A DNA stretch of 64,000 nucleotides from Candidatus Tiddalikarchaeum anstoanum. GTDB taxonomy: Archaea > Nanobdellota > Nanobdellia > Tiddalikarchaeales > Tiddalikarchaeaceae. Below, piece after piece: positions 28,228 to 62,645 of this stretch; the stretch's first letter is position 1, and every line of letters starts with the position of its first letter. A program made the position numbers and the translations under genes. The stretch lies in the NCBI GenBank assembly GCA_902385255.1, contig CABMEV010000010.1, forward strand, positions 64,114 to 128,113, read 5' to 3'. The notes beneath the pieces were generated by a model that saw only the letters and a program-made list of their open reading frames with translations, was not told the origin of the DNA and did not search any database.

Positions 28228-30870
28228 ATGAAGAATAAGAAGGAATCTAAAAAAGCAGATGATGAAGAGGAGTTAGAATTAGACTTTGACTCAGTCTTTG
28301 AGTATGTGAAGACGCACAAGTTTGTAATCACGATTATAGGCATAATATTGGCACTCGGTGTCACTTGGATTGTAAGAACGCAGGATATACCGAATTTTGT
28401 AGGCGGAATACTTCCAGACCTTGACACTTACGTATTCCTAAGATACGCTAATGATATTATAACAAAAGGCGCGATACCGCTCAATGATACGATGCGTTAC
28501 TACCCTACAGGTTTTGACACTACTAGTGAATTAATGACTCCTTCTTATGCAATTGCGGCAATTTACCGCATACTTAATTTGTTCACTAATGTGAGCGTCA
28601 ATGATGCTGCAATACTATTTCCTGTCATTACAACCTGCATCGGCATGATATTCTTCTTTTTAATAGCGCACGATGCTTTTGGAAACGCTGTCGCCGTAAT
28701 ATCATCACTGCTACTTGCAGTAAGCCAGGGATTTCTTTACAGGACCAGCGCCGGAGTCCCGGAGAAAGAGCCTATAGCAATAATGTTCTTATTTCCAATG
28801 ATATATTTCATACTTAAGGCAATCAGGAATACCGACCTCAAAAAGAAAATAATATACTCTTTGCTTTGCGGAGTTTGTATAATCGGTTCTGCAGCGTCAT
28901 GGGGAGGTTCAAACTTCACGTTCATACCTTTGGAGATAACGCTATTCTTGCTTGTGATGTTCGGAGTCTCAACGAGAAAAGACTCAATAGTCTACTTCAT
29001 ACTTGTGTTGTCCATATTAGGCATTACTTTAGTCTCAGGACGCTATGGAGTATTCCTTGACATCTTCAAGAATTATATGTTCATACTCTTTGTCCCAGCA
29101 CTATTCCTCAACTTATTCGTGCACGAATTATACCCTAAGTTAAACAGTTTTGTTTCAAAGTACAAGCCTTCCTTCCTGTCAGAACAGTTCTACTCAGTTC
29201 TTCTTGGAATATTTATCCTGTTCATTTTAACACTAATATATCCAGGTATTAGTTATTACTCTTACCTCTTCAAATTCGCATTTGAACGAATCAATAATCC
29301 ATTTGGCTCCGACCCGTTCGCATTAAGCGTCAGTGAGAACCAAGCGCCTTATTTTTATGACCCAAGCAGCCACGTCGACTGGTGGTCGCCTTTAAACTAT
29401 ACTTTTTTCACAATGTTGCTCGGCTCATTTCTGTTATTCTACGAATTATTGAAAGAGTTTAAGCATTCACGATTAATACTGACCATTACTTATGTCGCGT
29501 CAATAGTATTATTCATATTTGCGCGCTTTAGCAGCGACTCGAAATATGCATGGATTAACAATATAATGGACCAGCCATTCCTGGGACTGCAGCTTCACCA
29601 CTGGGTGCTGTTTTCATTCTTCGCCTATTTTGCATTCTTCACATTCAAGAATAACAAGAGAGTTGAAGCATTCAAAAAATTCAGGCCAGAATACTTATTC
29701 CTGTTCTTATGGTTCCTCCTTTCAGCAATAGGTGCAAGCGGAGGAGTAAGATTAATATTCGCAGTGTGCCCTCCGGCAATGATACTGTCAGGATACTTTT
29801 TCAGGAAGCTCTTTGACATAATAAACAGGTTCGTCGAATCTAAGACGCTTGCATCATCAGCGTATGTCCTGGCAATAATACTTATTGGGTATAACCTTTT
29901 CGTATCAATTAATCTTAACAAGAACATTTATCCAAGTTTCACATCAGAATGGAATGATGCAATGAACTGGGTGAAGTTAAACACACCTATTGACAGCGTC
30001 TTTGCTCACTGGTGGGATTATGGCTACTGGGTTCAGACAATGGGTGACAGGGCTACAAACCTCGACGGTGGAAACTTCTTCGTAGACCGAGACCACTTAA
30101 TGGGCAGGTACTTATTCGCATCAAGGGTGTTTAATAACGGGACTTATAATATGAGCGAGCCGGCAACAGCGCTTGTCAGGAACTTTGGAAGCCCTGAGTA
30201 TTTCTTAATAATAGATGATGATGTGTTAAAGTACGTCCAGATGGGAAGGATTGGAAAAAGACCAATGTATTACACAGTAGGAATACCTGACCAGACAATG
30301 ACCAACGACGTAAGGTTCAACATAGCTAACGCTTCAACTTACCCTTCAATTGCAGTCTATAAATCAATTTATGGCGCTTTCCCTGTGCAGGAAGACTTCA
30401 AGTATAATAATTTCCTTTACAAGGCAGGGCAGACTTACATAGTGAACATATTATTCCCTTACAACGAAACTGACGTGTCTCCGAAAGCTTATGCTGCCGT
30501 ATACAACTCTTATGCTGACAGTGCAAATGTCAAACTAGTACCTTTCAACTGTTACTGCACGTACGGCGAACAATGCTATTACTATAGGAATGACGGATTG
30601 CCTGAATGCACTTACTTGGTGAGCGATGGTGTAGTATTAATACCTCAGAATGCAAGCAATAACTTGTTCACACAATTATACCTGCTCAATGCTACAGTTC
30701 CAGGATTCGAAATAGCATATGATAATGACAGGCTGTTAAACATTCAGGGAATGGTCAGTCAAAGCCTTACAGACATTAAGATTTACAAAATAAATTATAC
30801 AGCACTCGACCCGTTCGTGTTAGACTCAGTGCCTAATTACTGGACTACAACAGGCGGAGTATTCTGGTAA
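28228..30870 (+). CDS. aglB: Archaeal oligosaccharyltransferase AglB (STT3 family)
   Basis: 880 aa. N-terminal multi-TM domain. WWDYGYW signature (AHWWDYGYWVQTMGD). Acidic LPDLDTY loop motif near the N-terminus. Large C-terminal soluble domain. Confidence 0.92.
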   Translation: MKNKKESKKADDEEELELDFDSVFEYVKTHKFVITIIGIILALGVTWIVRTQDIPNFVGGILPDLDTYVFLRYANDIITKGAIPLNDTMRYYPTGFDTTSELMTPSYAIAAIYRILNLFTNVSVNDAAILFPVITTCIGMIFFFLIAHDAFGNAVAVISSLLLAVSQGFLYRTSAGVPEKEPIAIMFLFPMIYFILKAIRNTDLKKKIIYSLLCGVCIIGSAASWGGSNFTFIPLEITLFLLVMFGVSTRKDSIVYFILVLSILGITLVSGRYGVFLDIFKNYMFILFVPALFLNLFVHELYPKLNSFVSKYKPSFLSEQFYSVLLGIFILFILTLIYPGISYYSYLFKFAFERINNPFGSDPFALSVSENQAPYFYDPSSHVDWWSPLNYTFFTMLLGSFLLFYELLKEFKHSRLILTITYVASIVLFIFARFSSDSKYAWINNIMDQPFLGLQLHHWVLFSFFAYFAFFTFKNNKRVEAFKKFRPEYLFLFLWFLLSAIGASGGVRLIFAVCPPAMILSGYFFRKLFDIINRFVESKTLASSAYVLAIILIGYNLFVSINLNKNIYPSFTSEWNDAMNWVKLNTPIDSVFAHWWDYGYWVQTMGDRATNLDGGNFFVDRDHLMGRYLFASRVFNNGTYNMSEPATALVRNFGSPEYFLIIDDDVLKYVQMGRIGKRPMYYTVGIPDQTMTNDVRFNIANASTYPSIAVYKSIYGAFPVQEDFKYNNFLYKAGQTYIVNILFPYNETDVSPKAYAAVYNSYADSANVKLVPFNCYCTYGEQCYYYRNDGLPECTYLVSDGVVLIPQNASNNLFTQLYLLNATVPGFEIAYDNDRLLNIQGMVSQSLTDIKIYKINYTALDPFVLDSVPNYWTTTGGVFW

Positions 30871-44584: not shown

Positions 44585-44636
44585 ATTTAGATATGGTTCA
44601 CTTAATGTTTTATAATATTTTCTATTCTTACTTGTC

Positions 44637-46204: not shown

Positions 46205-47149
46205 TTATTTCTTATCTTGATATATTTTTAATGATTTTGAATTTGCTATAAGCACATTAAGGATAAACAAAGATAGTATGAATAATATGGATGAGGAGAG
46301 TGAAAAACTTATTACTCCCTCAGCAGGTATGTTCAATAATCCGAAGAAATAAACGAGCGACACTTCACGCAGACCGAATCCTGAGAAACTGATTGGCAGC
46401 ATTGAAATTATTGTGATTAACGGGAATACCAGAGTTACGAAATAGAACGGTACGTACACTTTGAAGCCCAGTAAGAATACGAATGTTATAAAATAAGTGA
46501 ACAGCCAGTAAATTATGGATACTAAAAGCGATTTGAACAGCGCTTTTTTATTTGACATCAACGTTTTAAAAGCATCATTCACTTTTTCTGATATTTCTGA
46601 AACTCTCTTCCTGAACTTATTTGGGATGATTCTGATAAAGAATTTATTGTACTTAATATAGAGGAAGAATGCGACAATGCATGCAAAGAAAAATGCAAAG
46701 CCTGCAATCAGATAAAGCAGGTTGTTAACCTCAAAGGCGTTTAGGAAGACTGAAAAGAAGCATATGATGAAGATAGAGAAGTAACTTATTATCTTGTCCA
46801 TAAAAACAGTTGATAATGCCTTGCTTTTTGATATGCCTGTGGCTTTTGATAATATGAACCCTCTTGAAAAATCACCGACTTGTCCTGGTGTTATCCTGCC
46901 TGAAAATGTTCCTATTATAAGGGCAAAAAACGCATCTTTCAAGCTATACTCAGTGAAAATTTTGACAAGTATAATCCATTGGATGCTCTTTATCAACTGG
47001 CTGAAAATTGAGCCAACTATGAATATTATAATGTAAAAAGGGCTGATTGACAAAAGAGCGTTTAAAACAGCCTTAATATCATATTTGGAGAATAAATATA
47101 TGAAGAATATAATACTTAAAAATATTAATAATAATTTTTTAATGTTCAT
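46205..47149 (-). CDS. UPF0104 flippase-like membrane protein (paralogue of 32819..33772)
   Basis: 314 aa. ...ISPFYIIIFIVGSIFSQLIKSIQWIILV... has the same family pattern. Confidence 0.6.
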   Translation of the reverse strand: MNIKKLLLIFLSIIFFIYLFSKYDIKAVLNALLSISPFYIIIFIVGSIFSQLIKSIQWIILVKIFTEYSLKDAFFALIIGTFSGRITPGQVGDFSRGFILSKATGISKSKALSTVFMDKIISYFSIFIICFFSVFLNAFEVNNLLYLIAGFAFFFACIVAFFLYIKYNKFFIRIIPNKFRKRVSEISEKVNDAFKTLMSNKKALFKSLLVSIIYWLFTYFITFVFLLGFKVYVPFYFVTLVFPLITIISMLPISFSGFGLREVSLVYFFGLLNIPAEGVISFSLSSSILFILSLFILNVLIANSKSLKIYQDKK

Positions 47150-47231: not shown

Positions 47232-48314
47232 ATGCTTAAAGTCGCCGTCTGTTTGGGCACCCGTCCGGAAATAATTAAAATGAGTCCGATAATCCGCGCT
47301 CTTATTGATGAAAAAATTGAATATTTCATCCTTCACTCAGGGCAGCATTATTCATATAACATGGATAAATTATTCTTTGAGGAATTAAATCTTCCAGCCC
47401 CAAAATATAATCTTAACGTCGGGTCAGGGACTCATGCAAGCATGACTGCGAAGATAATGGAAGAATCTGAAAAAATATTTTTAGACGAGAAGCCAACGCA
47501 TGTTTTTGTGCAGGGAGATACGAATACTGTTCTTGGCTGCAGTATGGGCGCATTTAAGATTGAAGGAATTAAGCTTTGCCATGTTGAAGCAGGGTTAAGG
47601 AGTAATTTATGGTATATGCCTGAGGAAAAAAACAGGGTAATTGTTGATCACATATCAGATATCTTATTCGCGCCAACGAAGGAATCAGTAAAACTGCTTA
47701 AGAAAGAAGGAATACCTTCAAAAAGGATATTTCTAACGGGCAATACAATAGTAGACGCCACAATTCAAAATATCAAGCTTAAGGACGAGACTGAAACATT
47801 GTCTAAATTCAACCTTGAAAAAAAGAAATTTATAATAGTGACAGTCCACAGGCAGGAAAACGTGGATAATAAAAATAGTTTATTGTCAATATCCAATGCT
47901 ATAAACGAATTGAGCAATGATTATACAATACTATGGCCCATTCATCCGAGAACTAAAGAAAGGATTAAGGAATTTAACATAATAATTAATAAATCTATAA
48001 AAATTGTAGAACCAATAGGATACCTTGATTTTCTTAACCTGATAAAAAACGCCAGCTTGGTGCTGACTGATTCGGGCGGGCTGCAGGAGGAAAGTTGTAT
48101 ACTTAAAACTCCCTGTGTAACACTGCGCGAGAATACTGAAAGGCCTGAAACGTTAAAGGCGGGCAGTAACATGCTGTCAAAACTGGATAAGAAAAAAATA
48201 ATTAAAACAGTCAACGTGATGATTAAAAGAAAGCCCAGATGGAAGAACCCGTTTGGTGACGGCTTTGCTGCTAAAAAAATTATAAATATATTAAAATCCG
48301 AGCGTAAAAGCTAA
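47232..48314 (+). CDS. wecB: UDP-N-acetylglucosamine 2-epimerase (non-hydrolysing)
   Basis: 360 aa. MLKVAVCLGTRPEIIKMSPII N-terminus and HVEAGLRS are characteristic. Confidence 0.92.
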   Translation: MLKVAVCLGTRPEIIKMSPIIRALIDEKIEYFILHSGQHYSYNMDKLFFEELNLPAPKYNLNVGSGTHASMTAKIMEESEKIFLDEKPTHVFVQGDTNTVLGCSMGAFKIEGIKLCHVEAGLRSNLWYMPEEKNRVIVDHISDILFAPTKESVKLLKKEGIPSKRIFLTGNTIVDATIQNIKLKDETETLSKFNLEKKKFIIVTVHRQENVDNKNSLLSISNAINELSNDYTILWPIHPRTKERIKEFNIIINKSIKIVEPIGYLDFLNLIKNASLVLTDSGGLQEESCILKTPCVTLRENTERPETLKAGSNMLSKLDKKKIIKTVNVMIKRKPRWKNPFGDGFAAKKIINILKSERKS

Positions 48315-48338
48315 CATTTTTATAGGTTTAATTTAGAT

Positions 48339-49577
48339 ATGTTCATTATGAAACTTATGGACAAGATAAAGAGCAAGTCTGCTAAAATATGCGTTATAGG
48401 TATAGGTTATATGGGCCTGCCAATCTCTGCTCTCTTTGCTAAGCAAGGTTTTGATGTATTAGGTTTTGATGTTGATGCAAAAAAAGTTGAGCTAGTGAAT
48501 AAGTCAATACCTCCGTTTGAAGAAAAAGACCTGCCTGAACTAATTAAATCAGTGCGCTTTAAGTCAAAACTAAGGGCTTCATCAAAGATAGAAAAAGCTG
48601 ACATTTTTTTAATATCAGTGCCAACTCCAAAAAAGAACAATAATGCAGACTTATCCTTTGTAGAAGCAGCAACTAAATCAATATATTCAGTTTTAGAGGA
48701 GGGAAATCTCGTAATACTCGAATCAACAGTTCCCCCAAAGACTTCAATAAATCTTATCAAGCCACTCCTTGACCAGAAAAAAATAAAATATTACTTGGCC
48801 CACTGTCCGGAAAGGGCATTCCCAGGCAATACTATTTATGAATTAATTAATAATGACAGGATAGTCGGCGGCTTGGATGAAGAGGCAACAAGTCTGGCAA
48901 AAGAATTGTATTTAACATTCGTAAAAGGCAAAATATTTACCACAACTATTACCACAGCTGAGTTTTGCAAACTGGCGGAGAATACTTATCGTGATGTAAA
49001 CATAGCCCTCGCAAATGAGCTTGCATTATTATGCGAAGATGTAGGGATTAATGTTTGGGATTTAATTGAGCTCGCGAATAAGCATCCTCGTGTTAATATC
49101 CTGCAGCCTGGACCTGGAGTCGGCGGGCACTGCATACCTAAAGACCCAATATATTTGTACAAATCTTCCACCAAGGCTAAATTAATACCTATAGCCAGGG
49201 AGGTAAATGACAGTATGCCAAAACACGTTGTTGATATGATTAAAGAAGAGGTTAAAGGAGTAAAGAAACCAAAAATTGCATTGCTTGGCGCCTCCTTTAA
49301 AAAGAATGTGGATGACACGAGGGATTCGCCCACTGAATTCATTGCAAAACTATTATTAGACCTGGATTATGAAGTTAAAATACACGACCCTCTTGTTAAA
49401 ATGTTTAAATTTGAATTAAGCGATTATGATGCTTGCGTAAAAGATGCCGACTTAGTCGTTTTATTAATAGACCATGACTATTATAAAAGCAAGGATTTCA
49501 GCAAACTTAAAATATTAGATACCAGGAATTTTTACCCCAAAGCTGCAAGAAAATTAGGTGTTGGTTCTAAACCTTAG
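48339..49577 (+). CDS. wecC: UDP-N-acetyl-D-mannosamine dehydrogenase (nucleotide-sugar dehydrogenase)
   Basis: 412 aa. KICVIGIGYMGLPISALFA, catalytic GVGGHCIPKDP. Immediately downstream of wecB. Confidence 0.85.
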   Translation: MFIMKLMDKIKSKSAKICVIGIGYMGLPISALFAKQGFDVLGFDVDAKKVELVNKSIPPFEEKDLPELIKSVRFKSKLRASSKIEKADIFLISVPTPKKNNNADLSFVEAATKSIYSVLEEGNLVILESTVPPKTSINLIKPLLDQKKIKYYLAHCPERAFPGNTIYELINNDRIVGGLDEEATSLAKELYLTFVKGKIFTTTITTAEFCKLAENTYRDVNIALANELALLCEDVGINVWDLIELANKHPRVNILQPGPGVGGHCIPKDPIYLYKSSTKAKLIPIAREVNDSMPKHVVDMIKEEVKGVKKPKIALLGASFKKNVDDTRDSPTEFIAKLLLDLDYEVKIHDPLVKMFKFELSDYDACVKDADLVVLLIDHDYYKSKDFSKLKILDTRNFYPKAARKLGVGSKP

Positions 49578-50205
49578 TCGCGACTATTAATGATTTATAG
49601 GAGAATATTTTTCCAGTTAAGCCGTTTACCCAATTAATTAACCGCTTATTGTTTAAGTAATAGAGAATCCTGCCTAAACCTCTTGGCGTTACCCACTCCC
49701 TTGATACTATATTTATGTCGAATCCATTGTCTTTCAGAATTTCTATGATTGCCCTTGGGTGAACAGGCTGCCTATGTGTATAATCGTTGAAGAACTCCCA
49801 TTTGCGTCTCCTTATATCCGGAAAAACCAGCATCATTTTTCCGCCTTTTTTTAAAACTCGCGACCACTCTTTTATTATTTCATAGCGGTTATCCAAGTGT
49901 TCTATCACGCAGTCCGAGCATACTGCATCGAAAACTCCGTCTTTAAACTGCAATTTTTTTGCATCCCCAAGTTTAACGTTCAAGCCTTTTTTAGCTGCGT
50001 ATTTAATGAAAGTTTCATTATTATCCAATCCGAACGCTTCAACTTTTTTCGGGAGAAATTCCAAGAATGCACCCCAGCCGCAGCCTATATCTAATACTCT
50101 TTTTGGTTCTCCTAAAATGTCATAATAGTGCAGGACCTGTATTTCCCGCATAAACTTGGAATACTTGTTGGCGTAAGGTTTAGGCAGAACGTGTTCATAA
50201 TACAT
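49567..50205 (-). CDS. Class I SAM-dependent methyltransferase
   Basis: 212 aa. VLDIGCGWGAFLEFL, FDAVCSDCVIEHL. Confidence 0.8.
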   Translation of the reverse strand: MYYEHVLPKPYANKYSKFMREIQVLHYYDILGEPKRVLDIGCGWGAFLEFLPKKVEAFGLDNNETFIKYAAKKGLNVKLGDAKKLQFKDGVFDAVCSDCVIEHLDNRYEIIKEWSRVLKKGGKMMLVFPDIRRRKWEFFNDYTHRQPVHPRAIIEILKDNGFDINIVSREWVTPRGLGRILYYLNNKRLINWVNGLTGKIFSYKSLIVATKV

Positions 50206-51691
50206 TTTTTATCTTCCTCCATAAAGTTTTTGCATAATTTAATATGATTCTTAATAAGAAGAATGGTAGTATTAAAAAACCCAGCACTTTTTTAATTAAA
50301 TGGCTTTTCAAAAACACTGCGTTTTTGAATTCTATAAAAAACAGCCTTAAATCATAGCCATTCTTTAACAGGAAGTGAAATGGCACGTACTCGTTGAGGA
50401 ATAAATATTTCAGGCTTTTCGAATCTTTTATGTCCATCAGGGTATATAACGCATAGCGCATGTAGAATCTCTTTGCGTATTCTTCCAATTTTGCTTCATC
50501 CAGGCTCGGATTTTGAAAACGAGGTACTGTTTGTCCTTGCTTGTTTTTATAATTTTCATCAGTCCACGAGAATTTTTTGAGCAGCCCTTTTTCTACGGCG
50601 ATATCATAAACCCTGCTTCCAGGAAATATATCAAGCGGGCAGAATGAAAGTGACTGCGGCCTTAGTTTCCATGCTATATTAAACGTATCATTTATCGTCT
50701 TCTCATTATCACCAGGGTGGCCAATGATGAAGAAAGTTGTATAGTCAAGACCTACTTTTTCAGTAATCCTTATTGCCTTAATCACCTTTTCAACAGTTAT
50801 CATTTTATTAATGGATTTTAATATCTCATTATTCCCGCTTTCCACGCCGTACTCTATCATCACGCACCCGGCTGACTTTAATTTTTTTAACAATTCTTCA
50901 TCGACTGTGTCAACCCTGCCTAAGCATTCCCATTCTAGGTCTAGTTTTCTTTTAATTATCTCATTGCATATTTCAATAGCCCAGCTTTTTCTTGCGGTGA
51001 AAGTGTCATCTTTTATGTGGATGCGTTTTTTACCGTACTTGTTGATTAAGTATTCTATCTCATCGACAACTTTTTTGGCGCTTCGCGTTCTTAATTTCCT
51101 ATTCCATAATTTCGGGGAAGCGCAGAATGTACAGTCAAACGGGCAGCCTCTTGATGCAAACACTCCGAAATATTTGTACTTCTCCATTGGCAATAAGTCC
51201 CAGCCATAAGGGAGAGCATCTATATCCTGTATGAACAGCCTCGGCTGGTTTTTCCTGATTTTTTTCCCATCTCTGAATATTATTCCCTCTATTTCACCCA
51301 GTTTTTTGCCGCGGCAAATATCAAGCATGGTGTCTTCACCTTCCCCGAATACCACTATGTCTATGAAAGGATAATCCTGCATTATTTCTTCGCCCATGAA
51401 TGTGGCATGTACTCCGCCATAAACTGTCTTATAACCTAATTTTTTTGCACGCTTAAGCATATCCAGCGCTTCGAACCTATTATACGTAATGCTGGTAACC
51501 CCTACTATTTGGGGTTTTATTTTTTTAATCTCATTTTCCACCCTATTATTATCCCAGTTTAATATTTCGGCGTCTATTATGCTTACATCAATCCCATGTT
51601 CCTTAAGGTATCCGCCAATCATGGTAATACCTATTGGAGGTTCAAAATTACTTCCGCCAAATGAGAGACAATTTATTAGCACAATTTTCAT
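50195..51691 (-). CDS. B12-binding radical SAM enzyme (class B)
   Basis: 498 aa. MKIVLINCLSFGG... and RGCPFDCTFCAS (CxxxCxxC). Confidence 0.9.
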   Translation of the reverse strand: MKIVLINCLSFGGSNFEPPIGITMIGGYLKEHGIDVSIIDAEILNWDNNRVENEIKKIKPQIVGVTSITYNRFEALDMLKRAKKLGYKTVYGGVHATFMGEEIMQDYPFIDIVVFGEGEDTMLDICRGKKLGEIEGIIFRDGKKIRKNQPRLFIQDIDALPYGWDLLPMEKYKYFGVFASRGCPFDCTFCASPKLWNRKLRTRSAKKVVDEIEYLINKYGKKRIHIKDDTFTARKSWAIEICNEIIKRKLDLEWECLGRVDTVDEELLKKLKSAGCVMIEYGVESGNNEILKSINKMITVEKVIKAIRITEKVGLDYTTFFIIGHPGDNEKTINDTFNIAWKLRPQSLSFCPLDIFPGSRVYDIAVEKGLLKKFSWTDENYKNKQGQTVPRFQNPSLDEAKLEEYAKRFYMRYALYTLMDIKDSKSLKYLFLNEYVPFHFLLKNGYDLRLFFIEFKNAVFLKSHLIKKVLGFLILPFFLLRIILNYAKTLWRKIKNVL

Positions 51692-53016
51692 TTCATAATC
51701 ACTTTTTCAATTCCCTTATCAATTATTCGTATTGTTTTAAATTCTTTTGCTGTTTTCCTGCTTCTTTGCCTAAACCATTCTGCGAGATGTGTCATATTAG
51801 TTATCCAAATATTTCTTTTCTTGATGAGATTAAGCGTGAACCTTAACCCTCTAAAATCTAATGAAGGATGGTATAACACGTTTATTATTTCATTATTTTT
51901 GACCGAGTATTTGATGCTGTCAATAATTTCTCTTTTATCATGACACTCGAATAATGAAACTGGAAGTTCATAAAACTTGAATAACTTAGTTTTGTATACA
52001 GGATTAAATAATATGGATATTCCAACCAAACTCTTACTTTTTTTAGGTCTAATCTTTTTTGAAATATTTTTGCCGTAATTTATCGAAACTTCTTGGTATA
52101 ATGATGAATCGAGCGCTATTTCTGCATCATCCAGATTTTCAAGCATCAATGGCAGGAATATGTAGCCGTTATGAACTCTGGAGATTATGACTTTCTTCCC
52201 AACATAACGTTCAAGCTCTCTTTTTTGTACCAATATATTTGTAAAATTTCCATAAGCGTTATCATATAATGAATCATTTACGAATCCTTTACTGTACTCC
52301 CAAACTGTGCTTCCAAAATGCAGGCCTACTTCATCATTTTCTTTCGACGGGATGTATCCGTACCTTCCTGTTCCAAGAGGAGGAAATCTGCCATTTTCTT
52401 CTTTTGAGGTTTTTGGTGTTCTTAAAAACAGGGTTGGATATACTCCATATTTATGGCATGTTTCTAAGACATTAGGTGCAAACTTGAACCTCGTTTCCAT
52501 ACCAGCGTACCATAATGGGTAGAACATAGCTTTTAACAAGAAATCAGGGAGTTTAAGCAGGAAATTTAAAAAAAAATTATTTTTCTTCTTAATGTTTGCG
52601 TATTGTTTCTCAAAATCGATATCAAAGCTGAGCACGAATGCGCTCTCATAATTTTTGGGATAATACCACTTTGTTGTAATGGATAAATCATACGCTTTTG
52701 TTATCTCTTTTAAAATTTTAATTAAAATCTTCGGCTCATCTATGTTTGTTTGCTTGAAACTGAAAGCGTCATAAAACTGCTCTATAATCCTCTCATTTAC
52801 GTATATTGTATTATTTTCAAAAACATAATTTTTATCTAACTTTTTTTGTGTTATGAGGATTTTTCCAGTTTTTATTTTATTGCTGGAGAATATTATATCA
52901 CCTTCTGTTCCAGTTTTGTAATCAAGTCCTTCCCATTCTAAGAGGTTCTTCATTACTGCAAAAAATTTGCTGTTATCTTTTTTTAATGTAATAATCATTT
53001 TATTTTTTCCTCGCAA
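51688..53016 (-). CDS. Hypothetical protein in the glycan-modification operon
   Basis: 442-aa ORF whose ends overlap both neighbours. I cannot assign a family confidently. A weak polysaccharide-deacetylase-like guess was not supported. Confidence 0.45.
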   Translation of the reverse strand: MRGKNKMIITLKKDNSKFFAVMKNLLEWEGLDYKTGTEGDIIFSSNKIKTGKILITQKKLDKNYVFENNTIYVNERIIEQFYDAFSFKQTNIDEPKILIKILKEITKAYDLSITTKWYYPKNYESAFVLSFDIDFEKQYANIKKKNNFFLNFLLKLPDFLLKAMFYPLWYAGMETRFKFAPNVLETCHKYGVYPTLFLRTPKTSKEENGRFPPLGTGRYGYIPSKENDEVGLHFGSTVWEYSKGFVNDSLYDNAYGNFTNILVQKRELERYVGKKVIISRVHNGYIFLPLMLENLDDAEIALDSSLYQEVSINYGKNISKKIRPKKSKSLVGISILFNPVYKTKLFKFYELPVSLFECHDKREIIDSIKYSVKNNEIINVLYHPSLDFRGLRFTLNLIKKRNIWITNMTHLAEWFRQRSRKTAKEFKTIRIIDKGIEKVIMK

Positions 53017-53713
53017 AAATGATAATCTGGTTGGAATTGTCTTTGAAGAGATTGCTCAGCGGGAACAGGAGGAATTTGCGTATAACTGCATATCTAGAAA
53101 GTACAGGAAGGTCAAATAATATGCCTGAATATTTTAAAATCTCAAATCCGGATGTTTCTATTAACTTCTTCAGTTCTTTTGAGCTGTACCTTTTTTCACT
53201 CCAGCTCTTTTTATTTTTAGAGTAGATTACATCCTCCTCTGTTTTTTTACTAATTAACTTGTATAATATTTTTTTAATATTATCCTTATTTCCCAGACTT
53301 AGAATCAAATGGCCGTTTTTCTTGATTACTCTGTGTAATTCGTGCATCATCAAATTTTTATCATGATAGTATAATGTCTCCATACATAGAACTACATCAA
53401 AAGATTCGTCTTTGAACGGCAGTTTTACTGCATTCCCGACGAATACTTTTTCAATACTATTTTTTGCCCTAATAGCTGCCTGAAAGGATACGTCAATACC
53501 TATTATGTTGTCATAGCCTAATTCTTTTGAAAAGAAGCCTTCTCCGCATCCAACGTCGAGAATCCTTAATTTCTTATTATCTAGCGAATTCAGATAACTT
53601 TTTGTCTTCTTTACTCGCTCATAAAATTTTTCAGCCCTTATCTTGTTAGTAAATATTTCCCACGCATCTTTTCCCTTCTTATAGTAGTCTTCGAAAAATT
53701 CATTCTCATTCAT
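53000..53713 (-). CDS. Class I SAM-dependent methyltransferase
   Basis: 237 aa. ILDVGCGEGFFSKEL, FDVVLCMETLYYH. Confidence 0.8.
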   Translation of the reverse strand: MNENEFFEDYYKKGKDAWEIFTNKIRAEKFYERVKKTKSYLNSLDNKKLRILDVGCGEGFFSKELGYDNIIGIDVSFQAAIRAKNSIEKVFVGNAVKLPFKDESFDVVLCMETLYYHDKNLMMHELHRVIKKNGHLILSLGNKDNIKKILYKLISKKTEEDVIYSKNKKSWSEKRYSSKELKKLIETSGFEILKYSGILFDLPVLSRYAVIRKFLLFPLSNLFKDNSNQIIIFARKK

Positions 53714-54821
53714 TTAATTCACCTTGTGTCAGGCAGTCAAATATCTGCGATGTGTATAATAATGATTCATCATTCCTGAAGTTAACATCAAATAACTCCC
53801 TTTTTATCCTCTCCTTTATTCTTTTAATTCGCGTCATCGTTTCATATGTTAATCCTATGCTGGCATCTCCAGTTAACTCATTAATGCATCCTTTTGCCAG
53901 GCCAATTAATGAAAATCTCTTTTCATATCTTGGGAATGCGCCTTTATTGTTCTGCATTTTTGAAAGGATATTGATGCAAGTTTTCAGCTCTTCTTTATAC
54001 CCTTGTTCTTTGAAGCAGTAAGCTCCAAAACCATAAGCGCCGCTGGTTTTGTGGGAAAACATTAAGTGGCTTTTCTCCCACATGAAACCATTGTCATTTA
54101 TCGAGTTAGACAGCCATTGTCCGCCTTTTTCAAGGCTGATATCTAGATACTTATTCTTGATTTTGGATAATAACAAGTAATACATCGTTGTTCCCTGGTA
54201 GTGTATGTCAGGCACGTTTAAATGATACTCATAAGGGTAGCTTTGCACAGGCGTCGAGTACGGGTAAGCCCCATTTTTGAACTGGTGTCTTGCTATATTG
54301 AATATGCACCTTTCGCTCGCGTCTAATAATTTCTTGTTTTTCAATTCTTTTCCAAGATAACTTATGAAGGAGAGTACCGTAGCGTTAACGTTTAAGACAT
54401 CAGCGTAATGCTTGTATGATTTTATGAAAAATCCAGGACTGAACTCTTTTGTAAGAACATAATCAGCGGCCTTCTTTGCACAAATCAGGAATTTTTTACT
54501 GCCAGACTGCCTAAATGCATCAACCATAACCCTGCCGCATATGCTAGTTACTACAGTGCTCTCCTCATTCAAGTCAGGATGTATCTCATTCCAGCTGCCA
54601 TTACCATTCTGCCTTTTTAAAACCCAATTCAGTGATTTGTAAGCTTGTTCTTTCTCTTCCATAAAGAGCAGGCTTTTTCCGATTTCTGCACCAACCCTGT
54701 TTCTTTTGATGTTTAATACTGGGTCCAGGAAAGAACCATCTTCTCCCTGCAGGTTTAAAATGTAATCTTTTATTTTTTTAGTAATCATATTTTTTTGCAT
54801 ACCTTTAGTAATTTTTTGCAC
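53706..54821 (-). CDS. Prenyltransferase/terpene-cyclase-like alpha/alpha-toroid repeat protein
   Basis: 371 aa with four Q-x-x-[DN]-G-[SGA]-[FWY] repeats: LQGEDGSF, RQNGNGSW, HQFKNGAY, MQNNKGAF. Confidence 0.5.
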   Translation of the reverse strand: MQKITKGMQKNMITKKIKDYILNLQGEDGSFLDPVLNIKRNRVGAEIGKSLLFMEEKEQAYKSLNWVLKRQNGNGSWNEIHPDLNEESTVVTSICGRVMVDAFRQSGSKKFLICAKKAADYVLTKEFSPGFFIKSYKHYADVLNVNATVLSFISYLGKELKNKKLLDASERCIFNIARHQFKNGAYPYSTPVQSYPYEYHLNVPDIHYQGTTMYYLLLSKIKNKYLDISLEKGGQWLSNSINDNGFMWEKSHLMFSHKTSGAYGFGAYCFKEQGYKEELKTCINILSKMQNNKGAFPRYEKRFSLIGLAKGCINELTGDASIGLTYETMTRIKRIKERIKRELFDVNFRNDESLLYTSQIFDCLTQGELNE

Positions 54822-55906
54822 TGCTTATCCCTGCTGAATTCTAATGCCGCCTTTCTGCAGTTATTTGAATAATAACTCTTATTTTTTAATAATTTAATTA
54901 TTGCAGCGTTTATCTTTTTAGGGTCTTCACTTGAAACAAAGACACCTAAGGAGTACTTCTTCATGAATTTATCCATATCCCCGTTTTTATACCCTATTGC
55001 GAGTATTGGTTTTTCCGCACCTAAGTACTCTAATAGTTTGGACGGGAGGGCGTAAGCCCATAATTTTTCAGGCTTTAATCCGACATATAATATTGCTGCA
55101 CTTTTAAGATAGCTAAATACATCCTCATGTTTCACTTCATCTTTTATTATAACATTTTTATTGCGCTGTCGTAATTCCTCTTTTCCAGGACCAGAGCCTA
55201 TAACCAAAAGATTTGCATTATCCGGCAATGCGTTTAATACACTTAAAACCCCTCTGGTTTTATATATAGTTCCCATGTAAAGGAGTGTATTATCTTTTAA
55301 ACCGATTGTTTTGGCTTTGGCAAACGACTGCAAGTCTGGTCCGTTAAACACAACTTCAAATTTTTCCTCATCAATACCATGAATCTGGATTAATTCTTCT
55401 TTAATAGCTGGATTTGTCACTATTATCTTTTCAGCTTTTTTATATATCATTTTTAGAAATGGTCTTGCGATTAGGGCGGTTAATGAGTCTTTTTTTATGT
55501 AGCCTTTGTGTGCGTCTATTTCAAAGTTAAAATTTCTAATCCAGATGTCCCTCACTTCAACTATTAATTTTTTTCCGGTAAATAAACTCAGCAGGTATCC
55601 TGCGAACAAGTCCACTATAGGGGGGCTAGTTGCAAATATGCAGTCTATTTTCTCCTCTTTAATTGTCTTATACCCTTTTGTTATCAGGGATAACAGGTAG
55701 CCCGCGCCTGGGAATATCAGTGTTGCTGCGCGGCCTTCAACGCCGAGAACCTTAATGTTTTTCCTGATTTTCGAAGTCTTATTTTTTTTGGAGAGTACGA
55801 AAAGTTTGAACTCTTTCGATAATTCTTCAGTCTGGTACTTTGCCCGGATGCTCCCGCCGTTTATTACAGGAGGATACTCCAATGTTATGTACAATATTTT
55901 TTTCAT
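54785..55906 (-). CDS. Family 4 glycosyltransferase
   Basis: 373 aa. MKKILYITLEYPPVINGGSIRAKYQ. Confidence 0.8.
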   Translation of the reverse strand: MKKILYITLEYPPVINGGSIRAKYQTEELSKEFKLFVLSKKNKTSKIRKNIKVLGVEGRAATLIFPGAGYLLSLITKGYKTIKEEKIDCIFATSPPIVDLFAGYLLSLFTGKKLIVEVRDIWIRNFNFEIDAHKGYIKKDSLTALIARPFLKMIYKKAEKIIVTNPAIKEELIQIHGIDEEKFEVVFNGPDLQSFAKAKTIGLKDNTLLYMGTIYKTRGVLSVLNALPDNANLLVIGSGPGKEELRQRNKNVIIKDEVKHEDVFSYLKSAAILYVGLKPEKLWAYALPSKLLEYLGAEKPILAIGYKNGDMDKFMKKYSLGVFVSSEDPKKINAAIIKLLKNKSYYSNNCRKAALEFSRDKQCKKLLKVCKKI

Positions 55907-57327
55907 GCAAATACTTTCCTTATCTTATTGAATATGTAATCTTTTTCATCCTTTGTTATAACTGAAATTATTATGCAAAATGAAGCTAGTATGACAAGTA
56001 TTGAGACTATTATTCTTAAATACAAGTCGAACTTATACGCTTCCCTAAGTATCAGGATTGCAACAGTATTTACGAATGTAAGCCAGATTATGTTCTTATT
56101 AATCTTAGTCTTGAACATTAATATGAGCATGACTGTCATACTCAGGTAATAAACTATCTGTGATATTCCTGCGCCGAATACCCCGAATCTGTCAATTAAA
56201 AATATCAGGGCCACTGCATCAATCACGAGTCCTAACAGGTATAATAAAGGCATTTTTTTGATATCCCCGCTTCCGAAGTAAAACTTGTTTAAAATCGAGT
56301 AAGTCAGCTGGAATAATCCGGCTATGAATAATGGGAATGCCAAAGTAACTGCATTTCTGAACTCGTCGCCAAAGATTATTATTATAGTTTCTGGGATTGT
56401 TGCAAAGAGTATTGATGCTGTAAAATATAATATTATGTCATACTTTAATGTCTTGTTTATGAAATATTCTTTTTTGTCCTCTTCAAGCTGTGATGAAGCG
56501 CTGAGCATAGTGTTTGCAAGGCTGACTGATACAATATTAAGTATGGATAAGAATGTGAATGCCGAATAGTAAAATCCTACATCTATTGTTGATAACAGCG
56601 ATCCGATTAGAATCTTGTCCAGGTTTTGCGAGATTATGCCCATTATTGTAATGACGAACGCGATTAAGCTGTAGTTTAGGATGTCTCTGCGGAGTTCTGT
56701 CTTGAATTTTTCAAGCAGGCTTATTTTGTTGATTAATGGTTTTAGGAAAATTATTAATACTAATATTGTTGAGACTACTGTTGCCAAAACTATTGATGTA
56801 ATATCCTGTTTGTAAATCACTGCGAGAACAATGATGATTGCCAGGTACAAAACTTGCTTAATATTGTCCATTAAAACCATTTTTACATAATCCCTTAATC
56901 CCCTGAAACTGAAATAAAATATTGTGTATATATTGCCGAAAATAATTATCAGCGATGCTATTTTCAATAAAGGTTCAATTGAAATGTCATTGTATATGGT
57001 GATTGCTAAAAACCTGCTGAACGTAAAATGCAATACTGCAGCTATGGTTGATGTAGCAAGCACTATGAAAATTATTATCTTATAATACGGCAAAAAATTT
57101 ATTTTGTCTTTTTGATAACTTGCTAGAAACTTGCTTAGCGTTGTTTCAAGTCCTAAGAGCGAGATTTCTGAGAATAACGTAACCGAAACGAGTGATAGTG
57201 TGATTTGACCAACACCCAAAGGTCCAAAAATCCTTGAAATAATCATTAAAGCTATGACAGTGACTACTTTTTGTGTTACTGAACCTACAGTCAGCACGGC
57301 GCTTTCCTTTAAATACTGCTTTATCAT
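55903..57327 (-). CDS. Wzx/RfbX-type oligosaccharide flippase (MOP superfamily; AglR-like)
   Basis: 474 aa, about 12-14 TM. The N-terminus MIKQYLKESAVLTVGSVTQKVVTVIALMIISRIFGPLGVGQ is typical of the polysaccharide-biosynthesis protein family. Confidence 0.75.
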   Translation of the reverse strand: MIKQYLKESAVLTVGSVTQKVVTVIALMIISRIFGPLGVGQITLSLVSVTLFSEISLLGLETTLSKFLASYQKDKINFLPYYKIIIFIVLATSTIAAVLHFTFSRFLAITIYNDISIEPLLKIASLIIIFGNIYTIFYFSFRGLRDYVKMVLMDNIKQVLYLAIIIVLAVIYKQDITSIVLATVVSTILVLIIFLKPLINKISLLEKFKTELRRDILNYSLIAFVITIMGIISQNLDKILIGSLLSTIDVGFYYSAFTFLSILNIVSVSLANTMLSASSQLEEDKKEYFINKTLKYDIILYFTASILFATIPETIIIIFGDEFRNAVTLAFPLFIAGLFQLTYSILNKFYFGSGDIKKMPLLYLLGLVIDAVALIFLIDRFGVFGAGISQIVYYLSMTVMLILMFKTKINKNIIWLTFVNTVAILILREAYKFDLYLRIIVSILVILASFCIIISVITKDEKDYIFNKIRKVFA

Positions 57328-57430
57328 TTAGAGAATTCTAATGCATTTATATTTAAAAATAGTATAGAAATGCCCATTTTAAGCTGATGAAAACCTTTTT
57401 AATCGAAAATTTTTATTTATAGGCATAAGT

Positions 57431-59240: not shown

Positions 59241-59993
59241 TTATTTCTTTTTAAAATAGTCCCATGCTTCTTCTACGCTGTCCCAGTTTCCCATATCCAA
59301 GTACATCGCATTTGTTGATACTACTTTTATCTTTTCGCCGTTCTTCAGCGCTGTCTTGAATACGTCAGGGACTTGGTATTCTCCTTTTAATCCAGGGGGA
59401 GTCTTCTCGATGTAGTCAAACACTTTCTTGTTGAATATGTAAATGCCAAGATTAACCAAGTATTTCCCGTTTACTTTGAATGGTTTTGCCTGTTCAAGTG
59501 TCGGCTTCTCAATTGTGTCAACTAATTCTCCTTTGTCATTGACTCTTAGTATTCCGTAAAGTGTCGGGTTATCAACTTCTCTGGCTAAGATAGTGGCAAA
59601 AGGCTTCTCCTTCTTGTGAACAAGGACTGCTTTTTTCATCTCATCTTCTGGATTAATAAAAGCATCACCAACGTGAACAATGAAATCCTCATCTATCCAT
59701 CCTTTTCCCTGCAGAATCGCGTGAGCAAGACCTTTTCTCTCTTCCTGAAATAAGTAGCCAATCTTCAATTTTCCGCTGTTAAACATTGTTCCATCACCTA
59801 AGTGGTCTATGATTGCACCCTTATGGCTTCCTACTATTACAAATATCTTATCAACGCCTGCGTAATTGTGCAATGTTTCAACAACGTGGTCAATGACGGC
59901 TTTTCTCTGGACGGGGAATAATTCTTTTGGGTTTGCTTTTGTGAATGGGTACATCCTTGTGCCGCTTCCTGCTGCTGGTATTAATCCAATCAT
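59241..59993 (-). CDS. Sugar-1-phosphate nucleotidyltransferase (short form, glucose-1-P thymidylyl/uridylyltransferase-like)
   Basis: 250 aa. MIGLIPAAGSGTRMYPFTKANPKELFPV. Confidence 0.85.
   Translation of the reverse strand: MIGLIPAAGSGTRMYPFTKANPKELFPVQRKAVIDHVVETLHNYAGVDKIFVIVGSHKGAIIDHLGDGTMFNSGKLKIGYLFQEERKGLAHAILQGKGWIDEDFIVHVGDAFINPEDEMKKAVLVHKKEKPFATILAREVDNPTLYGILRVNDKGELVDTIEKPTLEQAKPFKVNGKYLVNLGIYIFNKKVFDYIEKTPPGLKGEYQVPDVFKTALKNGEKIKVVSTNAMYLDMGNWDSVEEAWDYFKKK
59918..59990. repeat. ~70-bp near-identical direct repeat, copy 1 (5' end of nucleotidyltransferase gene)
   Basis: ggggaataattcttttgggtttgcttttgtgaatgggtacatccttgtgccgcttcctgctgctggtatta. Confidence 0.75.
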
Positions 59994-59995
59994 AT

Positions 59996-61713: not shown

Positions 61714-61739
61714 TCACTGCTAATTATAAATATATTACC

Positions 61740-61762
61740 TTTATCCTACTTGGTAGGATAAA
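61740..61762. promoter_or_regulatory. Perfect palindrome TTTATCCTAC-ttg-GTAGGATAAA (10-bp arms, 3-bp spacer) in the divergent promoter region; candidate operator
   Basis: Seen in sequence. It lies just upstream of the TATA-like element for the RHH-fused nucleotidyltransferase gene and 27-49 nt upstream of the minus-strand UXS-like gene start. Confidence 0.5.
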
Positions 61763-61766
61763 CAAC

Positions 61767-61777: not shown

Positions 61778-61799
61778 CTGTGGTCATTGTATTTAGTAA

Positions 61800-62640: not shown

Positions 62641-62645
62641 AATTT

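Follow-up and report, generated by a model that had tools for sequence, protein, structure and literature searches.

Why should a flippase and a glycosyltransferase be encoded together with a protein that resembles a prenyltransferase, two methyltransferases, a protein of no evident family and a B12-binding radical SAM (rSAM) enzyme? This question is raised by a seven-gene block of Candidatus Tiddalikarchaeum anstoanum (DPANN). The seven genes most likely serve the cell surface by attaching an acidic sugar, modifying it, and exporting it. Their "prenyltransferase-like" toroid protein is more probably an enzyme of sugar modification, whose gene accompanies those for the sugar in more than 50 archaeal species. 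The window (the whole stretch analysed, 64,000 nucleotides) contains the following features.

55903..57327, minus strand: MOP-family (Wzx/AglR-like) flippase, 474 aa; Polysacc_synt 2e-17, Polysacc_synt_3 7e-17, above gathering score
54785..55906, minus strand: GT4 glycosyltransferase, 373 aa; Pfam Glycos_transf_1 and Glyco_transf_4
53706..54788, minus strand: soluble (α/α)6 six-hairpin (toroid) protein, 360 aa, ATG at 54788
53000..53713, minus strand: class-I SAM methyltransferase MT1, 237 aa; Methyltransf_11 3e-19, motif I ILDVGCGEG
51688..52998, minus strand: NodB/CE4-fold protein hyp442, 436 aa, ATG at 52998; extra N-terminal α/β domain of ~110 aa
50195..51691, minus strand: class-B radical SAM enzyme with B12-binding domain, 498 aa; B12-binding 2e-22, Radical_SAM 7e-30
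49567..50205, minus strand: class-I SAM methyltransferase MT2, 212 aa, at the end of the unit; Methyltransf_11 1e-20
57350..57357, minus strand: TATA-box-like element TTTAAATA, 23-30 nt ahead of the Wzx ATG, between divergent genes 103 bp apart
47232..48314, plus strand: non-hydrolysing UDP-GlcNAc 2-epimerase (WecB); TIGR00236 wecB, 402 bits against a cutoff of 210
48339..49577, plus strand: UDP-N-acetylmannosamine-type 6-dehydrogenase (WecC-like); TIGR03026, 417 bits, above cutoff
28228..30870, plus strand: AglB/STT3 oligosaccharyltransferase; Pfam STT3 2.8e-14, above gathering score; context, outside the operon

Gene junctions and expression signals

The preliminary description had all six junctions overlapping, as each does if the longest open reading frame is used. 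The seven minus-strand reading frames are real and match the coordinates given there exactly, and four overlaps are certain under any choice of start: ATGA (4 nt) at both Wzx/GT4 and hyp442/rSAM, ATGAATGA (8 nt) at toroid/MT1, and 11 nt at rSAM/MT2. The 37-nt overlap of GT4 with the toroid gene (54785/54821) and the 17-nt overlap of MT1 with hyp442 (53000/53016) instead hang on GTG or TTG longest-frame starts. The resulting 371-aa toroid protein, begun at a GTG at 54821, probably starts too early; with the ATG at 54788 the overlap with GT4 shrinks to 4 nt (ATGA), and the ATG of hyp442 at 52998, preceded by GAGGA, leaves a 1-nt gap after MT1. These ATG starts are the ones used in the NCBI deposit (360 and 436 aa). 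The operon junctions are tighter than the background, since 6 of 6 overlap, a count that presupposes longest-frame starts, against 6 of 26 same-strand neighbour pairs elsewhere in the window (probability ~1.5e-4 at that rate). Short overlaps are frequent anyway in this compact genome.

Intergenic space is absent, and a strict archaeal TATA consensus (TTTAWATA) occurs just once on this strand from 49400 to 57430, upstream of the first gene and not inside the block; the seven genes therefore look like one co-transcribed, translationally coupled unit, as had been suggested from the overlaps. The element TTTAAATA is a candidate for the single promoter and would give a leaderless or short-leader transcript. 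Strong Shine-Dalgarno-like motifs stand ahead of MT1, hyp442, and MT2 (GGAGGA), the GT4 and toroid genes have weak distal AGG-type matches only, and a search upstream of the Wzx and rSAM genes found none. A run of nine T residues occurs within the block at 52568-52576.

The probable ManNAcA cassette and the glycan island

The acidic sugar is pointed to by the genes that converge on the operon. The closest specific models for the WecC-like dehydrogenase are those of UDP-ManNAc dehydrogenase (372 and 355 bits), with 170 bits for the UDP-Glc dehydrogenase AglM. Its gene overlaps MT2 tail to tail by 11 nt and functionally belongs to the module. Supply of N-acetylmannosaminuronic acid (ManNAcA) to N-glycans by WecB/WecC has archaeal precedent (PMC2952790). 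Among 61 species-level loci, with smaller denominators for single genes, the gene immediately preceding the toroid gene encodes a GT4 homologue in 54 of 58, and the GT4 stop overlaps the toroid start or lies within 10 nt of it in 45 of 54. A dehydrogenase gene precedes the GT4-toroid pair in 47 of 56 loci, and in 45 of 54 a WecB-type epimerase comes first, completing the order epimerase-dehydrogenase-GT4-toroid; the cassettes of more than 45 methanogen genomes consist of these four genes only, without methyltransferases. The GT4 is thus a putative transferase of ManNAcA or a related uronate, its donor sugar being assigned from synteny only.

The block sits inside an aglB-anchored glycan island that holds AglB, a PF00953 phosphosugar transferase (AglH-like, 30877-31902) following it, more than 10 glycosyltransferases, sugar-nucleotide enzymes, a second B12-rSAM, and further methyltransferases. 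AglB lies 23 kb from the operon, and in other genomes no AglB appeared within 10 kb of the cassette; the product may therefore be a surface glycan that is not N-linked. Apart from the flippase, which is polytopic with numerous hydrophobic segments, the enzymes lack signal peptides and transmembrane segments (a C-terminal anchor of the rSAM enzyme aside), which makes the earlier suggestion of tailoring before flipping, here at the cytoplasmic face, plausible.

MT1, hyp442 and the radical SAM enzyme

The "hypothetical" protein hyp442, flagged for a fold check, turns out to have the fold of NodB/CE4 deacetylases. Its top matches include ArnD, a deformylase of lipid-linked sugars, and it is predicted to be a de-N-acetylase or esterase working on the glycan. 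Its relatives number 11 among 1.84 billion proteins. Relatives of hyp442 occur in other glycan clusters without a toroid gene. MT1 orthologues (47% and 43% identical) lie directly upstream of a hyp442 orthologue in loci L002 and L005, and a methyltransferase gene directly precedes a distant hyp442 relative in L067. The rSAM enzyme carries CPFDCTFC at residue 183 and a C-terminal transmembrane helix at residues 464-490, a tail retained only in the closest orthologue; a 40% identical orthologue in L005 follows methyltransferase and hyp487 genes. The order MT-hyp442-rSAM thus recurs in L005, and MT-hyp442 in L002, L007, and L067; MT1, hyp442, and rSAM are a DPANN-restricted sub-module. MT2 resembles MT1 in the SAM-binding core alone (36% over 92 aa).

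The toroid protein

Structure prediction for the toroid protein returned a confident (α/α)6 six-hairpin model (pLDDT 90.6), which together with four Q..G[SA][WFY] repeats bears out the proposed fold. Public annotation also reads this protein as of terpene cyclase/prenyltransferase type. Its family, found in Methanomicrobiales, Methanosarcinales, Thermococcales, and DPANN, has 26 invariant positions, among them the ionisable R31, E35, E68, K123, D130, and H196, which sit at helix N-termini and loops, the active-site places of six-hairpin enzymes. A profile of 24 family sequences searched against 5.8 billion proteins recovered only close family members (E <= 1e-94) and no link to AglQ/Agl32. The protein is proposed to be a glycan-level hexuronate-modifying enzyme and, as its fold, its context, and its conserved polar residues suggest, is probably an epimerase.

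Alternative explanations

The preliminary description had linked the toroid protein to prenyltransferase or terpene-cyclase chemistry and suggested that the block may build or tailor the lipid carrier, which would be of dolichol type. Neither part found support, and this reading is rejected as very improbable: the protein in the window has no DxDD and no DDxxD, DxDD occurs once among 66 family sequences, and DDxxD (19 of 63 aligned) is confined to one subfamily-specific loop. Pfam gives no Prenyltrans or SQHop_cyclase match for it, and a Prenyltrans match in 1 of 24 family members (E 1e-3); the sequence likeness is limited to the generic repeat. The conserved neighbours are genes for UDP-ManNAcA synthesis and GT4 in more than 45 genomes, with no isoprenoid genes nearby. 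The toroid protein might instead be a hydrolase or lyase specific for the glycan made by the neighbouring glycosyltransferase, which it would trim, prime, or recycle. Precedents are MmpH of the mycobacterial methylmannose-polysaccharide cluster (a glycosyltransferase, two methyltransferases, and a cytoplasmic six-hairpin hydrolase) and AlgL or BcsZ of bacterial exopolysaccharide operons. This reading is nevertheless unlikely, because GT4 and toroid genes are translationally coupled in the methyltransferase-free methanogen cassettes, where a biosynthetic step therefore fits better than editing. No GH or PL family exceeds threshold, and cutting a lipid-linked intermediate in the cytoplasm would be futile, as was argued for AglQ (PMC3827465). 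The toroid protein could also be a non-catalytic partner of GT4, a scaffold or a module that binds a substrate, for example the uronate or the lipid-linked acceptor. The obligate adjacency and coupling with GT4, the fact that no known catalytic motif was recognised, and the use of toroid domains as binding modules elsewhere (weak TED/complement matches in 9 of 24 members) fit this idea, but the invariant ionisable set at active-site places, kept from Euryarchaeota to DPANN, exceeds what binding alone usually preserves and makes it decidedly improbable.

A broader doubt concerns the unity of the block. The seven genes together are not a conserved unit: a link to the toroid gene is seen for Wzx in 3 of 61 other loci and for MT2 in 1 of 61, and only GT4-toroid and MT-hyp442(-rSAM) recur. 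Since conservation of the partnership does not extend to Wzx and MT2, the genes may be a lineage-specific mosaic, in which independent cassettes, two or three in number (Wzx; GT4-toroid; MT1-hyp442-rSAM; MT2), serve different sugars in a hypervariable island. The toroid-free hyp442 clusters and the island's additional B12-rSAM, methyltransferases, and glycosyltransferases speak for this. Such a mosaic is rather unlikely, given that the toroid gene has an rSAM_A-like gene beside it or close by in six or more DPANN loci (L005, L007, L008, L009, L060, and the P0006 contig; directly adjoining in L060, L009, and P0006), that MT-hyp442 shares a locus with dehydrogenase-GT4-toroid in L002, L005, and L007, and that the stop/start overlaps and single upstream TATA argue for co-expression. 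We give about even chances to the full preferred reading, a co-transcribed glycan-tailoring and export unit around ManNAcA in the aglB-anchored island, with a toroid protein that is neither prenyltransferase nor terpene cyclase.

Proposed pathway

According to this ManNAcA reading, the convergent WecB/WecC pair (47232-49577), classed by family scores, would make UDP-ManNAcA, and GT4, judged by synteny, would transfer ManNAcA onto a lipid-linked glycan at the cytoplasmic face. The toroid protein would then alter the uronate in place, most likely as an AglQ/Agl32-like epimerase in which an acid/base residue removes and returns the proton beside the carboxylate. In DPANN, the trio of MT1, the CE4-fold de-N-acetylase or esterase, and the B12-radical-SAM enzyme (here membrane-anchored), joined in this genome by MT2, may decorate the sugar by deacetylation and N-, O-, or C-methylation or by radical rearrangement. 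The Wzx-type flippase would move the finished lipid-linked glycan outward, to AglB or another surface assembly route.

Comparison with known systems

The closest functional parallels are AglQ of Haloferax volcanii and Agl32/VNG1058H of Halobacterium salinarum. Like the toroid protein, both are soluble, single-domain, all-α six-hairpin proteins of ~370 aa, encoded in agl/glycan islands with a UDP-sugar dehydrogenase, glycosyltransferases, methyltransferase, and flippase, and acting on a uronic acid once the dehydrogenase has worked, as is predicted for the toroid protein (PMC3827465, PMC12624080, PMC13308652). The solved structures closest to all three are the same: cellobiose 2-epimerase, mannose isomerase, GlcNAc 2-epimerase, GH88, YihS, YteR, and PL10. 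No sequence relationship was detectable by the two comparisons made, the toroid profile search and PF07221. The haloarchaeal enzymes work with GlcA from AglM, the toroid protein presumably with ManNAcA from WecB/WecC, and their taxonomic ranges differ. The claim that the combination is not a described agl module stands in part: flippase, UDP-sugar dehydrogenase, methyltransferase, and soluble six-hairpin epimerase are known from haloarchaeal agl clusters (PMC3827465, PMC12624080, PMC13308652), but a literature search found no description of a CE4-like protein or B12-rSAM in archaeal N-glycosylation.

Enzymes of the AGE superfamily (N-acylglucosamine 2-epimerase, cellobiose 2-epimerase, mannose isomerase, YihS) are ~10% identical to the toroid protein, which has no PF07221 match, and use free sugars rather than lipid-linked glycans. 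The toroid protein departs from class II terpene cyclases and from the β-subunits of protein prenyltransferases in aspartate motifs, family-level HMM match, and isoprenoid context, all of which it lacks. MmpH, its top Foldseek match (13% identity), is likewise a six-hairpin protein of the cytoplasm whose gene neighbours those of a glycosyltransferase and SAM methyltransferases, whereas most toroid cassettes lack methyltransferases and carry uronic-acid synthesis genes.

Compared with NodB/CE4 deacetylases such as ArnD (undecaprenyl-phosphate-L-Ara4FN deformylase), hyp442 lacks a PF01522 match, replaces the canonical TFDD and H(S/T)xxH with D-x-D and a single His in LHFG, adds the N-terminal domain of ~110 aa, and belongs to a very rare family. 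The rSAM enzyme shares an N-terminal B12-binding domain and CxxxCxxC core with class-B enzymes of sugars and lipid head groups (GenK/Fom3-type C-methylases, the AprD4 diol-dehydratase, HpnJ), yet reaches none of the NCBIfam equivalog cutoffs (the best being BchE, 228 bits against 481; HpnJ, 197 against 578) and has its own C-terminal anchor. Its nearest solved chain, AprD4 (6fd2, 1.9e-25), is a dehydratase and not a methylase, a point against the preferred reading. By analogy only, the HpnI/HpnK/HpnJ pathway, running from a glycosyltransferase through a deacetylase to a B12-rSAM, follows the same logic as the block.

Organization of the operon

The genes under discussion comprise a seven-gene operon and the two genes that converge on its 3′ end:

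47232-48314, plus strand: WecB UDP-GlcNAc 2-epimerase
48339-49577, plus strand: WecC-like, UDP-ManNAc-type dehydrogenase
49567-57327, minus strand: Wzx, GT4, a six-hairpin α/α-toroid protein (the toroid protein), methyltransferase MT1, the NodB/CE4-fold protein hyp442, a B12-binding radical SAM protein (rSAM), and methyltransferase MT2

The seven minus-strand ORFs lie where the preliminary description had placed them, and its observation holds once two start codons are corrected. With longest-ORF starts, all six junctions overlap as it stated; four of these overlaps are independent of start choice.

Operon junctions that overlap independently of start choice
Wzx/GT4: ATGA, 4 nt
Toroid/MT1: ATGAATGA, 8 nt
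hyp442/rSAM: ATGA, 4 nt
rSAM/MT2: 11 nt

The remaining overlaps, of 37 and 17 nt, stem from GTG and TTG starts. The deposited proteins begin instead at ATG 54788 (toroid protein, 360 aa), which creates a further ATGA overlap with GT4, and at ATG 52998 (hyp442, 436 aa), which is preceded by GAGGA and leaves a 1-nt gap to MT1. With ATG starts, the junctions range from an 11-nt overlap to a 1-nt gap and intergenic space is essentially nil. Short gene overlaps are normal for the Tiddalikarchaeum genome, yet the block is unusually tight, since only 6 of 26 same-strand pairs elsewhere in the window overlap.

The element TTTAAATA, 23-30 nt upstream of the Wzx ATG, is the sole strict archaeal TATA consensus on the operon strand in 8 kb. 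Shine-Dalgarno-like motifs located inside the upstream genes precede MT1 (AGGTGA), hyp442 (GAGGA), and MT2 (GGAGGA), and none was found at the Wzx start; this pattern would be compatible with one promoter and a coupled unit. Junctions with at most a 1-nt gap, a single candidate promoter element upstream, and internal ribosome-binding motifs together support the proposal of one translationally coupled unit. A scan for sigma-70 promoters and hairpin terminators gave 53 promoter-like sites where 32.6 would be expected for such AT-rich DNA and is uninformative for an archaeon, and tRNA and Rfam scans of the whole window returned no matches.

Oligo-T tracts are archaeal termination signals, and a T9 run on the transcript strand (52568-52576, minus strand) lies inside the hyp442 coding sequence, where it encodes ..NFFLNF..; it may be an internal attenuation point for the distal rSAM and MT2 genes. 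At the other end of the block, the 3′ ends of MT2 (minus strand) and the dehydrogenase (plus strand) overlap tail to tail by 11 nt (49567-49577), so the two converging transcripts must overlap.

The surrounding glycan island

Candidatus Tiddalikarchaeum anstoanum, whose deposited proteins include identical copies of the toroid protein and hyp442, is a DPANN (Nanoarchaeia) metagenome-assembled genome from Australian groundwater with 36.5% GC (PMC8561730). The operon sits in a glycan island of ∼36 kb, at the start of which are an STT3/AglB oligosaccharyltransferase (28228-30870) and a phosphosugar transferase of family PF00953. Beyond these, the island contains over ten GTs, four additional methyltransferase or radical SAM genes, two membrane proteins resembling flippases, and a series of sugar-nucleotide enzymes. 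For WecB the score is 402 bits (cutoff 210); the adjoining dehydrogenase comes nearest to UDP-ManNAc dehydrogenase, at 372 and 355 bits, with UDP-Glc dehydrogenase AglM far lower at 170 bits. In Methanococcus, UDP-ManNAcA made by WecB and WecC goes into the N-glycan (PMC2952790). The Wzx protein matches PF01943 (64 bits; cutoff 28.2) and PF13440 (62 bits) and has hydrophobic segments over its full length, as a MOP flippase should.

Several other genes in the window touch on surface glycans. LPG_synthase_TM flippase-like paralogues lie at 32819-33772 (plus strand) and 46205-47149 (minus strand), the second above the TIGR00374 cutoff; as Wzx is in the same island, there may be more than one route of lipid-linked-glycan translocation. 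Another class-B radical SAM gene, encoding 492 aa (within 43106-46202, minus strand), is only 28% identical to the operon rSAM, and its best NCBIfam model, the Sden_1168 P-methyltransferase family, falls far under cutoff. After it comes a polytopic membrane protein of 521 aa that no Pfam or NCBIfam model matches; this protein is possibly a GT-C or a Wzy-like polymerase and has a 21%-identical relative adjoining a further radical SAM gene in a Nanoarchaeia locus (L001). At 59241-63746, four paralogues of NTP_transferase (sugar-1-phosphate nucleotidyltransferase) stand in series with two SDR epimerase/dehydratases, which suggests that several different activated sugars are made in the island.

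Outside the island is a second UDP-sugar dehydrogenase (20296-21543). The window also encodes a histidine kinase of 1798 aa with at least seven PAS domains (4154-9550, plus strand) and a second kinase, of HisKA_7TM type (10712-12328, plus strand), which is much sensory capacity for a small-genome DPANN archaeon. An Orc1/Cdc6-type AAA+ gene (26305-27399, plus strand) lies ∼0.8 kb upstream of aglB, with one small ORF between them, overlapped by 11 nt, and a replication origin may be nearby.

A conserved cassette around the toroid gene

A scan for toroid loci, with one genome per species, yielded 61 loci, mostly from Methanoculleus and other Methanomicrobiales, with further examples in Methanosarcina, Methanolobus, Thermococcus, Thermoplasmatales, several DPANN lineages, and one Ignavibacteriaceae bacterium.

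Neighbors of the toroid gene
GT4 directly upstream, same strand: 54/58 loci
ManNAc-type dehydrogenase upstream of GT4-toroid: 47/56 loci
WecB upstream of dehydrogenase-GT4-toroid: 45/54 loci
GT4 stop overlapping the toroid start or within 10 nt of it: 45/54 loci

These counts define WecB, WecC, GT4, and the toroid gene as the conserved unit, an arrangement also found on metagenomic contigs. In the window this unit is split over two converging transcription units, and the functional module therefore reaches 47232, past the boundary of the block as first described. Wzx and MT2 are lineage-specific additions to it. Neither AglB nor AglH was found within 10 kb of the other toroid loci, a result that is uninformative, since even the window has its AglB at a distance of 23 kb.

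The Ignavibacteriaceae genome, the sole bacterium against 60 archaeal loci, carries the complete WecB, dehydrogenase, GT4, and toroid cassette (locus L019, 438-5169), which suggests horizontal transfer as a unit. Downstream of the toroid gene in Methanoculleus taiwanensis (locus L003, 11187-21206) are an ADH_zinc_N/GFO_IDH_MocA fusion, CapK-like adenylating enzymes, and FemAB-like Acetyltransf_6 proteins, families that recur near hyp442 relatives in two other loci (L067 and L068). Possibly they are machinery amidating the carboxyl group of a uronate, by analogy with the Thr-modified ManNAcA of Methanococcus.

The toroid protein is probably not a terpene cyclase

The preliminary description had read the toroid protein as prenyltransferase-like from its QxxDG[SW] repeats, normally a sign of prenyltransferase or terpene-cyclase chemistry, and had suggested that the operon may build or tailor the lipid carrier or a methylated sugar. 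Those repeats are real: four of the form Q..G[SA][WFY] were found (QGEDGSF, QNGNGSW, QFKNGAY, and QNNKGAF), and the AF2 model has the paired helices of an α/α toroid. Such repeats and this fold are common to the whole six-hairpin clan. Set against the prenyltransferase and terpene cyclase families PF00432, PF13243, and PF13249, the window protein has no Prenyltrans or SQHop_cyclase match at E ≤ 0.01; its Pfam matches are only weak ones to pectate lyase, and its NCBIfam squalene cyclase score is 16.5 bits (cutoff 322.7). Weak Pfam matches of 24 family members are spread over the clan (SQHop_cyclase_C in 12, Pec_lyase in 11, TED in 9, GH88 and C5-epim_C in 3 each, and Prenyltrans in 1), the best at 2.7e-5. 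A PDB sequence search did match squalene-hopene cyclase, but in the QW repeat alone and with every stretch individually weak, and it was rejected as evidence for a cyclase because it is repeat-level only.

The catalytic motifs of terpene chemistry, DxDD (class II) and DDxxD (class I), are both absent from the window protein; among relatives, DxDD occurs in 1 of 66 and DDxxD in 19 of 63, confined to one subfamily-specific loop. No isoprenoid-pathway context was seen across the 61 loci, where the neighbors are WecB, the WecC-like dehydrogenase, GT4, and glycan genes. With neither motif, no family HMM match, and no isoprenoid neighbors, a prenyl or terpene reaction on the lipid carrier is not supported. 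A literature search on the family as "squalene cyclase" found no papers.

Twenty-six residues are invariant in 63 toroid sequences, including R31, E35, E68, K123, D130, N133, Y177, H196 (the only invariant His), and Y197, and these residues are located at helix N-termini and the loops preceding them, where six-hairpin enzymes have their active sites. The residue types would suit proton abstraction beside a carboxylate.

hyp442 and the radical SAM protein

No family model in Pfam or NCBIfam matches hyp442, PF01522 included. Its relatives amount to 11 cluster representatives among 1.84 billion proteins by exhaustive HMMER, which was needed to find them, as a word-indexed search returned the query alone. 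The structural model (pLDDT 87.2) is a distorted (β/α) barrel of the NodB/CE4 deacetylase fold with an additional N-terminal domain of ∼110 aa. Canonical CE4 motifs include TFDD, the H[ST]xxH metal triad, RxPY, and LxH; the invariant D126-x-D128, H227, R274-x-H276, D297, and H377-P of hyp442 resemble motifs 1, 2, 3, and 5, with the second His of motif 2 absent, and matches to CE4 profiles are weak (E 0.009-0.02). Distant relatives also adjoin a class-I methyltransferase, in uronic- and diacetamido-sugar clusters. At one of these loci (L068, 8001-11193), a distant relative of 515 aa is followed by a heparinase II/III-type protein, with several methyltransferases, Wzy, and NeuB around them. Heparinase II/III-type proteins act on uronates and belong to an α/α-toroid family of their own; the locus gives a second case, independent of the first, of a CE4-like protein paired with a toroid protein.

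The rSAM protein has CPFDCTFC at residue 183 and matches PF02310 (79.6 bits) and PF04055 (104.9 bits), both above gathering score, and thus combines the CxxxCxxC motif with the N-terminal B12-binding domain of class B. It falls in none of the characterized equivalogs compared (BchE, HpnJ, PhpK, HpnR, and others), the best scores being 228 vs 481 bits for BchE and 197 vs 578 bits for HpnJ. Because its closest solved relative is the sugar diol-dehydratase AprD4, methylation is just one possibility for its chemistry. A C-terminal transmembrane helix (residues 464-490) suggests that it works at the membrane; the anchor is claimed for the window protein only, as it is kept solely in the closest orthologue (locus L005). 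No papers were found on B12-binding radical SAM proteins in archaeal N-glycosylation.

The MT1-hyp442-rSAM trio is confined to DPANN loci in the toroid locus scan. Next to the toroid gene at locus L002 are adjacent orthologues of MT1 (47% identity) and hyp442 (32%), with their order conserved, and likewise at L005, where a 40%-identical B12-binding radical SAM gene follows. A third locus (L007) has the methyltransferase and hyp442 genes together with dehydrogenase-GT4-toroid, and an rSAM_A-like gene lies next to the toroid gene at L060, L009, and on the P0006 contig.

Proposed function and significance

The tailoring unit of the preliminary description survives in part: a coupled cytoplasmic unit acting before flipping is plausible, unlike prenyl or terpene reactions on the lipid carrier. 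There is about an even chance that the operon is a ManNAcA-centered tailoring and export unit in which the six-hairpin protein is an AglQ/Agl32-like sugar modifier; "epimerase" specifically is a less probable label for that protein. The DPANN-specific trio of putative deacetylase, methyltransferase, and B12-binding radical SAM protein would add further chemistry to the sugar.

A more far-reaching joint reading, which we regard as unlikely, makes the toroid proteins new sequence-independent, glycan-level amino-uronate epimerases (e.g., ManNAcA to L-GulNAcA) that, with the DPANN CE4-like de-N-acetylase, SAM methyltransferases, and membrane-anchored B12-binding radical SAM protein, would yield a new C-methylated or radically rearranged lipid-linked amino-uronate. 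If true, a family widespread in methanogens, Thermococcales, and DPANN archaea would be mislabeled as terpene cyclases, and archaeal surface glycosylation would gain its first example of cobalamin-dependent radical SAM chemistry. No papers were found on ManNAcA epimerases in archaea.

At least 121 archaeal protein clusters of the toroid family are labeled "prenyltransferase/squalene oxidase repeat", "terpene cyclase/mutase", or "pectic acid lyase". Recognizing the real context, UDP-ManNAcA synthesis with GT4, corrects a spreading annotation and is relevant to terpenoid gene mining in archaea. The widespread cassette, mis-annotated and without description in the literature searched, is a testable set of four genes (WecB, WecC, GT4, and the six-hairpin protein) in archaea that are cultivable and partly genetically tractable, such as Methanoculleus, Methanosarcina, and Thermococcus barophilus. 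The two very rare families, CE4-like hyp442 and its partner B12-binding radical SAM protein, are candidates for new sugar-tailoring chemistry on DPANN cell surfaces, which mediate contact with host cells.

Comparison with known systems

Under the joint reading, the operon would parallel the hopanoid enzymes HpnI, HpnK, and HpnJ, with the same logic of GT, deacetylase, and B12-binding radical SAM protein. For the toroid protein itself, the comparison is with AglQ and Agl32, both haloarchaeal and, to our knowledge, the only archaeal sugar epimerases with experimental support. A profile of 24 toroid sequences searched against 5.8 billion proteins (word-indexed) gave 121 matches, all close relatives with E ≤ 1e-94; there were no distant matches and no haloarchaeal protein among the named ones, and the attempt to bridge the families by large profile search thus returned only the close family.

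Haloferax AglQ is soluble and acts downstream of the dehydrogenase AglM, with 1fp3, GH88, YihS, YteR, and PL10 as predicted structural neighbors (PMC3827465). Its top Pfam match is PF07221 (PMC3827465), whereas no PF07221 match occurs in the 24 toroid members. Like AglQ and Agl32, the toroid protein is soluble and folds as one α-helical barrel domain, its closest solved structures being epimerases of the AGE superfamily, and its gene lies in a glycan (aglB) island, linked to a UDP-sugar dehydrogenase and GT4. In these respects of fold and gene context, the toroid family would work like AglQ and Agl32.
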